DNA of 64,000 nucleotides from Escherichia coli (lineage in GTDB: Bacteria; Pseudomonadota; Gammaproteobacteria; Enterobacterales; Enterobacteriaceae): NCBI RefSeq assembly GCF_009931435.1, contig NZ_CP043414.1; one strand, 5' to 3'. Of the stretch, positions 6,663 to 59,522 are shown one piece after another. The notes under the pieces are model-generated. The model ran no database searches, was not told the origin of the DNA, and saw nothing but the letters and a program-made list of their open reading frames with translations. Numbering within the stretch: position 1 is the first letter of the stretch; the number at the start of each line of letters is the position of its first letter. The position numbers and the translations under genes are program-made.

Positions 6663-8087
6663 TTACTGCATTAACAGATAGATGGTGCTGTCGCCGCGCT
6701 GAATATTCAGTGCCAGCACAGACGGTTTGCTGTCGAGAACTTTACGCAGTTCAGCGATGTTTTTCACTGCCTGCTGGTTCGCACCAATAATCACATCACC
6801 TTTCTTCAGGCCGATCTGCGCAGCTGGAGTGCCCGTTTTCACGTTGTTCACCACCACGCCCTGATCTTTGCCTTTGTTGCTCATCTCAGCGCCTTCAATG
6901 CCGTTGAAGATGGTGCTGGAATCAACCTGATTCTGGCTGCTCTGCTGCAGTTCCAGGTTCACGTTAACCTGCTTCCCGTCGCGCAGTAAGCCCAGGGTCA
7001 GTTTGCTGCCTACCGGCATAGTGCCCACCTGAGCACGCAGTGCGGCAAAGCTGCTGATTGGCTTACCGTTCAGTGAGGTGATCACATCACCCGCTTTAAT
7101 GCCCGCTTTCGCGGCGGAAGAATTCGGCAGAACCTGGCTTACGAAAGCACCGCGCTGGGCGTCAACTTTCATCGCTTTCGCCAGATCGGAGTTCAGCTCA
7201 GTCCCCATAATACCCAGCTCACCGCGTTTCACCTGGCCGTATTCCACCATCTGCGAGGTCAGGTTTTTCACCATGTTACTCGGGATAGCAAAACCGATAC
7301 CGATGTTGCCGCCGTCCGGTGCGAGGATCGCGGTGTTGATACCGATCAGTTCGCCGTTCAGGTTAACCAGCGCACCACCGGAGTTACCACGGTTGATCGC
7401 AGCATCGGTCTGGATGAAGTTTTCATAGTTTTCGGCATTCAGACCGCTACGCCCCAGCGCAGAGACAATCCCGGAAGTTACCGTCTCACCCAGACCAAAC
7501 GGGTTACCAATTGCTACGGTGTAATCACCCACGCGCAGTGCATCAGAATCCGCCATCTTAATTGCGGTCAGATTTTTCGGGTTCTGGATCTGGATCAGCG
7601 CGATATCAGAGCGCGGATCTTTGCCAACCATCTTCGCGTCGAACTTACGACCATCGCTCAGCTGGACTTTAATCACCGTCGCGTTATCAACAACGTGGTT
7701 GTTGGTGACGACATAGCCTTTATCGGCATCAATGATGACGCCGGAACCCAGCGCCATGAATTTCTGTTGCTGGCCGCCGCCATTACCGCCCTGGCCCCCC
7801 TGGCAGAACGGAGAGCTCTGGAACGGAGAACCTTCCTGGCAGAACGGAGAATCATCACCGAAGAACTGCTGGAAATTACGCGGCATACGCGGCGTATTAA
7901 CGGTTGTGCTACCTTCTACGTTAATGCTGACCACTGAAGGCATCACCTTTTCGAGCATCGGTGCAAGGCTTGGCATCTGCTGGGCTGTCGTTGCTGAAGA
8001 AGTCTCAGCCGCCGTTGCAGAGAGCGGAGATAACGCCAAACCTAAACTCAGAGCCAGTGCACTCAGTGCTAATGTGGTTTTTTTCAT
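6663..8087 (-). CDS. degP: periplasmic serine endoprotease DegP/HtrA
   Basis: 474-aa ORF with signal peptide, trypsin-like catalytic region (GNSGGAL) and two PDZ domains. Confidence 0.95.
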   Translation of the reverse strand: MKKTTLALSALALSLGLALSPLSATAAETSSATTAQQMPSLAPMLEKVMPSVVSINVEGSTTVNTPRMPRNFQQFFGDDSPFCQEGSPFQSSPFCQGGQGGNGGGQQQKFMALGSGVIIDADKGYVVTNNHVVDNATVIKVQLSDGRKFDAKMVGKDPRSDIALIQIQNPKNLTAIKMADSDALRVGDYTVAIGNPFGLGETVTSGIVSALGRSGLNAENYENFIQTDAAINRGNSGGALVNLNGELIGINTAILAPDGGNIGIGFAIPSNMVKNLTSQMVEYGQVKRGELGIMGTELNSDLAKAMKVDAQRGAFVSQVLPNSSAAKAGIKAGDVITSLNGKPISSFAALRAQVGTMPVGSKLTLGLLRDGKQVNVNLELQQSSQNQVDSSTIFNGIEGAEMSNKGKDQGVVVNNVKTGTPAAQIGLKKGDVIIGANQQAVKNIAELRKVLDSKPSVLALNIQRGDSTIYLLMQ

Positions 8088-8132
8088 GTATTTCAGTCTC
8101 GATTAACAGATAACGCAAAATTGCTGTGTTCT

Positions 8133-50215: not shown

Positions 50216-50359
50216 TTGCTGACAAAGTGCGCTTTGTTCATGCCGGATGCGGCGAAAACGCCTTATCCGGCCTACTAAAACTCGCAAATTCAATAAATTG
50301 CAGAGTTCACGTAGGCCTGATAAGCGTAGCGCATCAGGCAGTTTTGCGTTTGTCAGCAG
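50216..50359. repeat. REP pair (BIME) in the gcd-cueO intergenic region
   Basis: GCCGGATGCGGCGAAAACGCCTTATCCGGCCTAC and inverted GTAGGCCTGATAAGCGTAGCGCATCAGGC; flanked by inverted 10-mers TGCTGACAAA / TTTGTCAGCA. Confidence 0.8.
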
Positions 50360-54752: not shown

Positions 54753-54790
54753 GAAATAAAAAATGCCCGGGAATCTCATTCACCGGGCAT
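54753..54790 (-). terminator. rho-independent terminator after acnB
   Basis: stem ATGCCCGG/CCGGGCAT with a minus-strand T-run (TTTTTATTT), ~35 bp after the acnB stop. Confidence 0.65.
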
Positions 54791-54824
54791 TGTCTCGTTT
54801 ATGCGCAGCGGGTGCGCTTACTTA

Positions 54825-57422
54825 TTAAACCGCAGTCTGGAAAATCACCCCATCCGCTTTTTCGGTGTACTGAGAAAGCTGGTTGAAGTTCAGATAACGA
54901 TAAGTATCAACGGCTGTTTTATCTACCTGCGCCACGTAGGTCTGGTACTCTTCCGGCGTCGGCAGTTTGCCAATCAGCGCCGCAACAGCAGCCAGTTCCG
55001 CAGAAGCCAGGAAGACGTTCGCGCCAGTCCCCAGACGGTTCGGGAAGTTACGGGTAGAGGTGGAAACCACCGTCGCACCGTCCGCTACACGCGCCTGGTT
55101 ACCCATACACAGGGAACAGCCAGGGATCTCGATACGCGCACCACTCTTACCGAAGACGCTGTAGTAGCCTTCTTCGGTCAACTGCGCGGCGTCCATACGC
55201 GTTGGCGGTGCCACCCACAGGCGGGTCGGCAACTGACCTTTGTGCGCATCCAGCAGTTTACCGGCGGCACGGAAGTGACCGATGTTGGTCATGCAAGAAC
55301 CGATAAACACTTCGTCGATCTTCTCGCCCTGTACCGCAGACAGCGGACGTGCGTCGTCCGGGTCGTTCGGTGCACAGAGGATTGGCTCTTTGATATCAGC
55401 CAGATCGATATCGATTACTGCTGCGTATTCTGCATCAGCATCGGCTTCCAGCAGCTCAGGATTCGCCAACCATTTTTCCATACCCTGAATACGGCGTTCC
55501 AGGGTACGACGATCGCCATAACCTTCCGCGATCATCCACTTCAGCAGGACGATGTTAGAGTTCAGGTATTCAATGATCGGCTCTTTGTTCAGCTTGATGG
55601 TACAACCGGCAGCAGAACGCTCGGCGGACGCATCGGTCAGCTCAAAGGCCTGCTCAACTTTCAGATCCGGCAGACCTTCGATTTCCAGAATGCGACCAGA
55701 GAAGATGTTTTTCTTGCCTTTCTTCTCAACGGTCAGCAGACCTTGTTTGATCGCATACAGCGGAATGGCGTGTACCAGATCGCGCAGGGTGATGCCTGGC
55801 TGCATTTTGCCTTTGAAGCGAACCAGAACGGATTCCGGCATATCCAGCGGCATTACGCCTGTTGCAGCTGCAAATGCCACCAGACCAGAGCCCGCCGGGA
55901 AAGAGATACCGATCGGGAAACGGGTATGGGAGTCACCGCCAGTACCGACGGTATCCGGCAGCAGCATACGGTTCAGCCAGGAGTGGATTACGCCATCACC
56001 CGGACGCAGCGACACACCGCCACGGTTCATGATGAAGTCCGGCAGCGTGTGGTGCGTGTTCACGTCAACTGGTTTCGGATAAGCCGCTGTGTGACAGAAA
56101 GACTGCATCACCAGATCAGCCGAGAAGCCCAGGCACGCCAGGTCTTTCAGTTCATCACGGGTCATTGGGCCGGTGGTGTCCTGGGAACCTACAGAGGTCA
56201 TTTTCGGTTCGCAGTACGCCCCCGGACGAATGCCTTTCACGCCGCAGGCACGACCGACCATTTTCTGCGCCAGCGAGAAGCCGCGATCGCTCTCAGCGAC
56301 ATCTTTCGCCTGACGGAACACATCGCTCTGCGGCAGGCCGAGTGCTTCACGTGCTTTGGTGGTCAGGCCACGCCCGATAATCAGCGGAATACGGCCACCT
56401 GCTCGCACTTCATCAATCAGCACGTCGGTTTTCAGTTCGAAGGTCGCCAGCAGTTCGCCGGTTTCGTGGTTACGCACTTCACCTTTGTACGGGTAAACGT
56501 CAATCACGTCGCCCATGTTCAGGTTAGAGACGTCGACTTCGATTGGCAGTGCACCCGCGTCTTCCATCGTATTAAAGAAGATTGGTGCAATTTTACCACC
56601 GAGGCACAAACCACCGCCGCGTTTGTTCGGTACATGAGGAATGTCTTCACCCATAAACCACAGCACGGAGTTAGTCGCAGATTTACGTGAGGAACCGGTA
56701 CCCACAACGTCACCCACATAGGCCAGCGGGAAACCTTTCTGTTGCAGAGCTTCGATTTGCTTGATCGGACCAACAACACCCGGCTGATCTGGCTCAATAC
56801 CTTCACGCGCGTTTTTCAGCATCGCCAGCGCGTGCAGTGGGATATCCGGGCGCGACCACGCATCCGGTGCCGGAGAGAGGTCATCGGTGTTGGTTTCGCC
56901 AGTTACTTTGAAGACGGTAACGGTCAGTTTTTCAGCCAGCGCCGGGCGATTCAGGAACCATTCGGCATCCGCCCAGGACTGCATTACCTGCTTCGCATAT
57001 TCGTTACCTGCTTTCGCTTTCTCTTCTACGTCATAGAAGTTATCGAACATCAGCAGCGTGTGAGAAAGTGCTTTGGCAGCGATCGGTGCCAGTTTGGCAT
57101 CATCCAGCGCGTCGATCAGCGGATGAATATTATAACCACCCTGCATGGTGCCCAGCAGTTCGATGGCTTTTTCCGGAGTCAGCAGTGGGGATTTAGCTTC
57201 GCCTTTGGCGACAGCAGCCAGGAAGCCTGCTTTGACATAGGCGGCTTCATCGACGCCAGGGGGAACACGGTTGGTTAACAGATCTAACAGGAATTCTTCA
57301 TCGCCCGCGGGCGGGTTTTTCAGCAGCTCTACAAGTGCGGCCATTTGGTTTGCATCCAGGGGTTTGGGCGCAATCCCCTCAGCGGCACGCTCAGCTACGT
57401 GCTTACGGTATTCTTCTAGCAC
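54825..57422 (-). CDS. acnB: aconitate hydratase B / 2-methylisocitrate dehydratase
   Basis: ORF 54825..57575; start placed at the GTG at 57422 (VLEEYRKHV) preceded by AGGAGAA; 865 aa; Fe-S ligand cysteines. Confidence 0.93.
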
Positions 57423-57776
57423 GACGGTTCTCCTCGCTCTCATTGTCATAGTGCGGCAGGCGATTCTCTTCACGCTCCTGTGAGACAGCAGTTTGTAGGG
57501 TAAATGCCCAGTACCGCAACGGGCAGAATAGCAGGATTTTGACGATGTGTTAATCTGTTTACAAAAAAGCAACATAAAAAAGTGGCTGAATCGTTAAGGA
57601 TAGTCTAGAGATTGTTTCCCTCCGTAAAAACCTCGTTAATTCGCATGGTGATAATCACCTTTCTCAACGAATCCCAAGATTAGTCAAAATTTAAACTACC
57701 GCCTCTTTATACTCGGATTCATAGCACCTGCGGGTGGCAGTTCGCCGACCATTGCGATTTCCTTGAGATCCGAATT

Positions 57777-59522
57777 ATGAAAATGACTTTGCCGTTTAAA
57801 CCCCATGTGCTGGCGCTAATTTGCAGTGCCGGGCTTTGTGCCGCCTCTGCCGGGCTATATATAAAAAGCCGCACAGTGGAAGCGCCTGTGGAAGCGCAAT
57901 CGACACAACTGGCTGCGCCTGACATCACCGCAGTTACGCTTCCTGCAACGGTTTCCGCACCGCCCGTAACGCCCGCCGTCGTTAAAACCGCATTCAGCAC
58001 TGCGCAAATAGATCAATGGGTTGCACCTGTCGCGCTGTACCCCGACTCTCTGCTTTCACAAGTGTTAATGGCATCAACCTATCCGACAAACGTTGCGCAA
58101 GCAGTGCAATGGTCGCACGATAATCCACTTAAACAAGGCGATGCTGCTATTCAGGCGGTATCTGACCAGCCGTGGGACGCCAGCGTCAAATCGCTGGTGG
58201 CTTTTCCGCAATTGATGGCGTTAATGGGCGAAAACCCGCAGTGGGTGCAAAATCTTGGCGACGCATTTCTGGCGCAACCACAGGACGTAATGGACTCGGT
58301 ACAGCGGTTGCGGCAACTGGCGCAACAAACCGGCTCGCTGAAGTCATCAACCGAACAGAAAGTTATTACCACAACGAAGAAAGCTATACCGGTAAAACAG
58401 ACAGTCACGGCTCCCGTCATACCATCCAATACCGTTACAACTGCCAACCCTGTCATTACAGAGCCTGCAACAACCGTCATTTCCATTGAGCCCGCCAATC
58501 CTGATGTGGTCTATATTCCCAACTACAACCCAACCGTGGTTTACGGGAACTGGGCCAATACTGCGTATCCGCCGGTTTATCTGCCACCACCAGCCGGAGA
58601 ACCGTTTGTTGACAGCTTTGTGCGCGGATTCGGCTATAGCATGGGCGTTGCTACCACGTACGCACTATTCAGCAGCATCGACTGGGACGATGACCATCAT
58701 CATGACGATGATGATTATCACCACCACGATGGCGGTCATCGTGACGGTAATGGCTGGCAACACAACGGCGACAACATCAATATCGACGTCAACAATTTCA
58801 ACCGTATCACCGGTGAGCATCTTACTGATAAGAACATGGCATGGCGGCACAATCCAAACTACCGTAATGGTGTGCCCTATCATGATCAGGATATGGCAAA
58901 GCGGTTTCACCAAACCGATGTCAACGGCGGCATGAGCGCCACGCAGTTACCTGCTCCAACACGCGACAGCCAGCGTCAGGCGGCAGCAAGTCAGTTTCAG
59001 CAACGAACACACGCCACACCCGTCATTACGCGAGATACACAACGTCAGGCGGCGGCACAGCGATTTAATGAAGCGGAACACTATGGGAGCTATGACGACT
59101 TCCGCGAGTTCAGCTGTCGCCAACCACTGACCCAGCAACAAAAGGACGCCGCTCGTCAGCGTTATCAGTCGGCCTCTCCTGAGCAGCGCCAGGCAGTCCG
59201 CGAGAGAATGCAGACTAACCCGCAGAACCAGCAGAGAAGAGAAGCGGCACGTGAGCGTATTCAGTCAGCCTCGCCTGAGCAGCGCCAGGCGGTTCGCGAG
59301 AAAATGCAGACTAACCCGCAGAACCAGCAGCGAAGAGAGGCAGCGCGTGAGCGTATACAATCAGCATCACCTGAACAACGTCAGGTTTTTCGGGAGAAAG
59401 TTCAGGAGAGCCGCCCACAACGTCTAAACGACAGTAACCGTACTGCCCGATTGAATAACGAGCAACGGTCAGCAGTACGCGAACGTCTCTCTGAGCACGG
59501 AGCAAGGCGACTGGAAAGGTAA
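57777..59522 (+). CDS. yacH: DUF3300-family secreted protein YacH
   Basis: 581-aa ORF with signal peptide, Asp/His-rich segment and C-terminal tandem repeats; divergent from acnB. Confidence 0.8.
   Translation: MKMTLPFKPHVLALICSAGLCAASAGLYIKSRTVEAPVEAQSTQLAAPDITAVTLPATVSAPPVTPAVVKTAFSTAQIDQWVAPVALYPDSLLSQVLMASTYPTNVAQAVQWSHDNPLKQGDAAIQAVSDQPWDASVKSLVAFPQLMALMGENPQWVQNLGDAFLAQPQDVMDSVQRLRQLAQQTGSLKSSTEQKVITTTKKAIPVKQTVTAPVIPSNTVTTANPVITEPATTVISIEPANPDVVYIPNYNPTVVYGNWANTAYPPVYLPPPAGEPFVDSFVRGFGYSMGVATTYALFSSIDWDDDHHHDDDDYHHHDGGHRDGNGWQHNGDNINIDVNNFNRITGEHLTDKNMAWRHNPNYRNGVPYHDQDMAKRFHQTDVNGGMSATQLPAPTRDSQRQAAASQFQQRTHATPVITRDTQRQAAAQRFNEAEHYGSYDDFREFSCRQPLTQQQKDAARQRYQSASPEQRQAVRERMQTNPQNQQRREAARERIQSASPEQRQAVREKMQTNPQNQQRREAARERIQSASPEQRQVFREKVQESRPQRLNDSNRTARLNNEQRSAVRERLSEHGARRLER
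59154..59410 (+). repeat. ~96-bp in-frame tandem repeat (about 2.7 copies) within yacH
   Basis: units start at 59154, 59250 and 59346; encode ...QSASPEQRQAVRE(R/K)MQTNPQNQQRREAARERI... Confidence 0.85.

Follow-up and report, generated by a model that had tools for sequence, protein, structure and literature searches.

The minus strand of the window, by which we designate the whole 64 kb stretch of DNA analysed, carries acnB, the gene coding for aconitate hydratase 2 / 2-methylisocitrate dehydratase. The reading frame, the elements at its beginning and the upstream ATG that opens a longer version of the same frame are the following:

54825..57422, minus strand: acnB coding sequence, 865 codons and a TAA stop (ORF list, RefSeq, 1L5J, TIGR00117 and Pfam)
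57420..57422, minus strand: GTG initiation codon (sequence, RefSeq-annotated start and conservation)
57429..57434, minus strand: Shine-Dalgarno (SD) sequence AGGAGA (sequence, predicted 16S pairing and purine conservation)
57573..57575, minus strand: upstream in-frame ATG of a 916-aa ORF, not a start codon (transcript, SD and conservation)

The minus strand of segment 57400-57440 contains GAGCGAGGAGAACCGTCGTGCTAGAAGAATACCGT. As the initial annotation had read it, GTG (57422-57420) is found 6 nt after AGGAGA and is followed by CTA GAA GAA TAC. The spacer is ACCGTC (57428..57423), and the distance becomes 7 nt when counted from the AGGAG core. The last base of the TAA stop is position 54825. In the longest-ORF listing the frame covers 54825..57575 and has 916 aa from ATG versus 865 aa from GTG; the extension, previously given as about 50 residues, thus has exactly 51 codons. 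Translation from ATG 57575, by which AcnB would have 916 aa and 51 additional N-terminal residues, has in its favour that this ORF is uninterrupted, in frame and ATG-initiated, and that the long frame is open in E. albertii too. The evidence against it comes from databases, from the transcript and from the ribosome-binding site, as detailed below.

Segment 57200-57800, whose features are acnB and yacH, has a match in 5425 of 5426 complete genomes (E. coli), with an identity of 93.5-99.5%. Three E. coli genomes were inspected, namely those with the best and the most divergent match and that of a K-12-like strain (O16:H48). The RefSeq/PGAP CDS has 2598 nt and starts at the same GTG in all three, at locus position 879, which converts to window position 57422. 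The gene is the same as acnB (b0118) of E. coli K-12. The segment is 98.7% identical to the K-12-like genome, and the GTG start, the SD, the 865-aa product and the neighbours (yacH divergent upstream; lpd, aceF and aceE beyond) are shared. The aconitate hydratase 2 of PDB entry 1L5J also has 865 aa and is ~99% identical; its deposited sequence begins MLEEYRK and its residues 2-865 align to ORF residues 53-916. The differences are at strain level only (D41 and V71 here versus E and I, and, at protein residue 365 or ORF residue 416, Q versus H). The acnB equivalog model TIGR00117 gives a full-length match of 1714.7 bits, the curated cut-off being 1287.2. Model positions 1-844 fall on ORF residues 52-905, so that position 1 lies on residue 52, the GTG codon. 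Pfam analysis of the 916-aa ORF locates Aconitase_B_N (PF11791) at residues 55-207, Aconitase_2_N (PF06434) at 219-433 and Aconitase (PF00330) at 523-869. This is the AcnB domain order: Aconitase_B_N (HEAT-like), Aconitase_2_N (swivel) and the aconitase catalytic domains.

The initial protein search returned near-identical enterobacterial AcnB only, and it took 50% representatives and a profile search to find distant relatives. Among the 120 best matches, 118 have their N-terminus at the GTG codon, with the sequence MLEEYRKH, MLKEYREH or VLEEYRKH, and two at the internal Met27; the length is 865 aa in 110 of them. None of the 120 closest protein clusters of the 5.8-billion-protein collection carries the 51-residue extension. 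Edman N-terminal data for AcnB are said to have been published. A full-text literature search with MLEEYRK gave a single irrelevant match, nothing relevant was found in the literature on the acnB GTG/GUG start codon, and no acnB entry was found in the available text of the TRAINSPOTTER N-terminomics supplements.

Two further features describe transcription of the gene:

57553-57548 and 57530-57525, minus strand: acnB promoter, with -35 TTAACA, a 17-nt spacer and a TG-extended -10 TATTCT (scan)
57423..57518, minus strand: 5′ UTR of 96 nt, the mRNA 5′ end being at 57518 (construct numbering and oligonucleotides of PMC4150767)

The acnB mRNA studied by Benjamin and Masse begins TGCGGTACTGGG, which is window position 57518, and the T7 and “promoter-less” oligonucleotides EM125 and EM1259 of that work start at TGCGGTACTGGGCATTTACCC, from 57518 onwards (PMC4150767). 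Benjamin and Masse (2014, PMC4150767) reported the transcript to be 2761 nt long in total and to end 67 nt past the ORF, and constructed in-frame fusions at nt 177 and nt 2688. These values fit only one leader length, 96 nt. The TTAACA-17-TATTCT site is the sole sigma-70-like site in 57380-57800, and 7 nt separate it from the published 5′ end downstream. It does not vary across four E. coli lineages, including the strain at 93.5% identity, in which the entire promoter and leader are unchanged while the DNA farther upstream diverges. A search of Rfam found no known cis-regulatory RNA in the leader.

ATG 57575 precedes even the -35 box, and 57 nt separate this codon from the mRNA 5′ end. Given a 5′ end at 57518 it is therefore not on the transcript, on which its competitor GUG 57422 is found. 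The AcnB177-LacZ translational fusion, which carries only nt 1-177 of the mRNA, is expressed and RyhB-repressed, and the 30S toeprint on acnB maps to the initiation region (PMC4150767). ATG 57575 is absent from the insert of this fusion, which is nonetheless expressed. The codon at the ATG 57575 position is GTG in one divergent E. coli. At the 80 species loci listed (see below) the frame upstream of the acnB start is open for 4-79 codons before a stop, the extension being interrupted in this way in other genera; the extension had been described as non-conserved, which this comparison of orthologues confirms.

The predicted pairing with the 16S rRNA 3′ end (ACCUCCUUA) is -8.9 kcal/mol at the GTG, which ranks among the best 0.6% of positions in the window. 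At ATG 57575 the value is +0.3 kcal/mol, in line with the initial proposal of a strong SD at the GTG and of no such ribosome-binding site at the ATG. The values for the other in-frame starts are -2.9 (AUG 57449), +1.3 (AUG 57443) and -3.4 kcal/mol (GUG 57473). From -12 to -8 only purines are found in each of the 80 species listed, and AGGAG at 7 nt falls within the 5-9 nt at which an SD precedes AUG, GUG or UUG in canonical initiation. The arrangement AGGAG-N5-9-GTG has five copies in the window, where shuffled sequences predict 5.8 ± 2.7, and is thus at chance frequency; by itself the pattern therefore has no value as proof. The acnB copy is taken as real because it is placed exactly where AcnB homology begins and because it is conserved.

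GTG 57422 is almost certainly the start codon of E. coli acnB, an ordinary one that databases already annotate. RefSeq, 1L5J, TIGR00117, the closest proteins and the transcript 5′ end all agree with the original assignment of this codon. Translation from ATG 57575 is effectively refuted and its probability is negligible: the ATG is upstream of both mRNA and promoter, the extension is absent from the closest proteins, and the family models and 1L5J begin at the GTG. In the most plausible scheme, the sigma-70 promoter TTAACA / TATTCT drives synthesis of the mRNA starting at 57518. The 30S subunit binds AGGAG 7 nt upstream of GUG 57422, and fMet-tRNA reads GUG as methionine to yield the 865-residue MLEEYRKH... 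protein. The 51 in-frame codons up to ATG 57575 are promoter and leader DNA that is stop-free by chance. GUG starts are found in ~14% of E. coli genes, roughly one in seven, and the one of acnB is already known, being present in databases. With a longest-ORF rule, a central enzyme of the TCA cycle would receive 51 spurious residues, an error that current pipelines already avoid.

The leader also holds two AUG codons, at 57449 and 57443, that are on the mRNA, in frame and followed by no stop up to the GUG. Minor isoforms initiated there would have 9 or 7 additional residues (MTMRARRTV-). AUG is an intrinsically stronger initiator than GUG, which counts in favour of such isoforms. Neither codon has a usable SD, however (-2.9 and +1.3 kcal/mol, as above), and the MTMRARRTV-extended protein is absent from the 120 closest database proteins. 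Furthermore, an additional spacer base in Citrobacter, Pseudocitrobacter and Kluyvera puts the motif out of frame, with a stop 6 codons upstream. The conserved CAAUGAGAGC thus behaves as an RNA motif and not as codons. We consider initiation at these AUGs very unlikely, and the preferred start remains GUG 57422.

Conservation of this start was investigated in a genome scan at 80 loci, one per species, out of roughly 600 matching species. The loci span Escherichia, Citrobacter, Yersinia, Serratia, Erwinia, Proteus, Photorhabdus and Aeromonas, among others, and also include Vibrio, Photobacterium, Pseudoalteromonas, Shewanella and Agarivorans. GTG is found at the codon aligned to Met1 in all 80 species listed, from Enterobacterales to Shewanella. 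Parsimony changes were counted on a neighbour-joining tree built from first and second codon positions. The start codon has undergone 0 changes in the 80 species listed, compared to a mean of 11.4 (minimum 4) at A/G two-fold sites and of 25.8 (minimum 14) at four-fold sites. The constraint extends to the flanks. Non-coding positions -3, -2 and -1 display 2, 1 and 3 changes while -4, -5 and -6 display 16, 14 and 10. The first base of Leu2, where both C and T are possible, shows 0 changes whereas that of nine other invariant Leu codons shows 7-14. Position +6 has 3 changes. The 51 nt that surround the start are at least 99% identical in all 5425 matching E. coli genomes. The nearly invariant core and a second segment, discussed below, are:

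57418..57425, minus strand: conserved octamer GTCGTGCT, -3 to +5 (column conservation, parsimony and RyhB complementarity)
57430..57442, minus strand: upstream arm of the predicted RyhB duplex, UGAGAGCGAGGAG, -20 to -8, overlapping the SD (RNAduplex)

Each column of the octamer is 94-100% conserved, with 2, 1, 3, 0, 0, 0, 0 and 0 parsimony changes, so that GTCGTGCT is nearly frozen amid neighbouring and synonymous sites that are saturated. Frozen bases that are non-coding or synonymous point to selection on the RNA GUCGUGCU(A/U) and not on the protein alone. The acnB start is in this respect a clean case in which an initiation codon is, together with its flanks, under selection at the nucleotide level (0-3 changes versus 10-26 at neutral sites).

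Nine contigs from metagenome-assembled genomes (MAGs) were read for more distant proteobacteria. The start is GTG in five (two Pseudomonas, Rhodocyclaceae, Sedimenticola and Chromatiales) and ATG in four (Burkholderiales, Methylobacter, Achromobacter and a Polyangiales-labelled bin). As GTG reaches distant taxa while ATG is used in some, the acnB GTG appears to be ancient but not obligatory.

The initiation region is a known target of the iron-stress small RNA RyhB, which represses acnB translation when iron is limiting. In E. coli K-12 RyhB represses acnB by pairing at this region, as seen by in-line probing; a 6-nt RyhB mutant loses acnB repression, and RyhB reduces the 30S toeprint on acnB 10-fold, an analysis in which lacZ fusions were also used (PMC4150767). 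The window has an initiation region identical to the one of that study. The RyhB sequence is present in 5424 E. coli genomes and scores 83 bits with RF00057, a family with the consensus core GCACGACAUUGCUCACAUUGCUUCCAGU. The octamer GUCGUGCU is perfectly complementary to RyhB core AGCACGAC, yielding a predicted perfect helix of 8 bp that includes the start codon. The predicted duplex combines this octamer helix with a UGAGAGCGAGGAG/CUCACAUUGCUUCCA pairing across the SD. When the complete 136-nt leader was paired with the whole of RyhB, the resulting duplex extended unrealistically over the entire length (-54.4 kcal/mol), and the local segment -35 to +20 paired with the RyhB core was used instead. 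For this segment RNAduplex gives -24.7 kcal/mol, a value matched by 0.2% of shuffles. The score is not unique, being reached by 0.85% of the 55-nt windows in the 64 kb.

A change of GUG to AUG weakens the predicted duplex from -24.7 to -18.9 kcal/mol, a cost of ~5.8 kcal/mol. In the 80 species listed the duplexes, which include the start codon in every case, have a mean energy of -25.0 kcal/mol and are weakened by 5.7 kcal/mol on average when GUG is replaced with AUG. Duplexes of the four taxa with an ATG start are at -7.7 to -12 kcal/mol compared to a window-wide background of -13.8 ± 4.0. Relative to the RyhB repression demonstrated in PMC4150767, the present analysis adds the predicted 8-bp helix with the start codon, its near-invariance in 80 species and the predicted AUG penalty. 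What appears to be new here is the depth of start-codon conservation and the overlap of the octamer with the complement of the RyhB core.

From these sequence comparisons we infer that GUG and its flanks (-3 to +6) may be held constant partly through the RyhB seed helix. GUC, GUG and CU would together form the seed for the RyhB core. A GUG to AUG change, normally favoured in the gene of an abundant enzyme, would introduce an A-C mismatch in the middle of the helix and possibly loosen iron-sparing repression. The stronger proposal that RyhB pairing locks the identity of the acnB start codon in Enterobacterales, Vibrionales and Aeromonadales is tentative, and we regard it as possible yet somewhat doubtful.

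The same conservation of GUG and its -3 to +6 context could have a reason unrelated to RyhB, such as expression tuning, a hairpin or another binding factor, and we judge the chances of this alternative to be evenly balanced. GTG starts are found in the distant Pseudomonas, Rhodocyclaceae, Sedimenticola and Chromatiales MAGs, and the last three taxa show background RyhB complementarity only (-11.7 to -16.4 kcal/mol). Since GTG persists where this complementarity is missing, RyhB would be at most part of the reason, and the idea of RyhB as the sole cause of the GTG is weakened. In Shewanella, Agarivorans, Pseudoalteromonas and Tolumonas GUGCU is conserved and GUC is not. Shewanella ryhB has the conserved core but controls neither acnA nor sdhA (PMC2964681).

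Among the RyhB-independent reasons, a hairpin finds some support in RNAalifold, which detects a helix between CGUG at the start codon and CACG (+22 to +25). This helix has only 4 bp, however, with -1.29 kcal/mol and no covariation, and a conserved intramolecular structure at the start was rejected on these grounds. Tuning of expression by a weak start does not explain why non-coding bases (-3 to -1), a synonymous C (+4) and base +6 are frozen. The frozen octamer is, moreover, exactly complementary to the RyhB core, for which the calculated chance of an exact 8-mer match in the 32-nt core is 25/65536, or ~4e-4.

RyhB pairing offers a concrete and testable reason why a highly expressed gene might retain a weak GUG. 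If true, a start codon locked by RyhB would be a plausible and modest refinement of the published interaction. A conserved non-AUG codon is also known in infC, whose AUU start serves IF3 autoregulation and is sensed by the initiation factor that the gene encodes. The acnB start resembles it as a weak start kept across many species in the gene of an abundant protein, with a codon identity that is suggested to be under selection. It would differ in the nature of the constraint, which for acnB is proposed to be base pairing to a trans-acting small RNA.

The acnB promoter and its full 96-nt leader (57380-57560, minus strand) are 100% identical in the four E. coli lineages compared, among them a strain whose identity across the 601-nt query is just 93.5%. 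Many substitutions were found in the same comparison just upstream of the promoter, at 57560-57800. Judged from these alignments, constraint is stronger on the acnB leader than on the intergenic DNA that flanks it. When the segment 57200-57800 was searched in the E. coli genome collection, three of the 5460 matching places fell in records that carry a plasmid label, probably through mislabelling or misassembly of the replicons.

The 5′ UTR carries several start-like codons upstream of the GUG initiation codon of acnB. Two AUGs at 57449 and 57443 (minus strand; AUGACAAUGAGAGCGAGGAGAACCGUC GUG, 57441-57449) are in frame with this GUG and are not followed by a stop codon before it. Both lack a Shine-Dalgarno sequence, and in Citrobacter-like genera a spacer change of one nucleotide places them out of frame. 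A conserved CAAUG(A/U)GAGC in the leader resembles the complement of GCUCACAUUG in RyhB, the iron-stress small RNA that pairs with the acnB initiation region. A second AGGAG (57481-57477, minus strand) is followed after one base by an in-frame GUG at 57473, positioned 17 codons upstream of the real acnB start. A single-base spacing is too short for initiation.

A GTG start is likewise found in acnB of the Pseudomonas metagenome-assembled genomes L085 and L093 (ACU GUG CUU, positions 370-410). The predicted pairing energy of the Pseudomonas initiation region with the enterobacterial RyhB core, its conserved pairing segment, is -22 kcal/mol, clearly stronger than background. In Pseudomonas, PrrF takes the place of RyhB. 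The Sedimenticola metagenome-assembled genome L091 has acnB split into two called genes (401-1420): the upstream one codes for 206 amino acids with the N-terminal domains and is followed, ~100 nt further on, by a separate 468-amino-acid ORF with the aconitase domain. Either a frameshift or an assembly error lies behind this split, or acnB is a pseudogene here.

At the other end of the gene, the acnB 3′ UTR (54758-54824, minus strand) agrees with the published 67-nt UTR and includes two elements:

54817-54803, minus strand, stem-loop GCGCACCCGCUGCGC directly past the acnB stop codon
about 54791-54759, minus strand, terminator AAUGCCCGG...CCGGGCAUUUUUU

The stem-loop reported as the apo-AcnB binding site occupies the same position as the first element, just past the stop codon. 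The terminator loop has one G more in the window than in the K-12 oligonucleotide EM1573 (PMC4150767).

The acnB leader gave no Rfam match at the gathering threshold, at which two elements were identified elsewhere in the window:

8082-8127, minus strand, HtrA 5′ UTR thermometer (RF02700, 77 bits)
50277-50318, plus strand, ES036/CssrF small RNA (RF02751, 41.3 bits)

The yacH ORF (DUF3300; 57777-59522, plus strand) codes for 581 amino acids, as compared to 616-619 in the three RefSeq genomes inspected. The shorter ORF points to a difference in length that keeps the frame, or else to a premature stop, in this strain.
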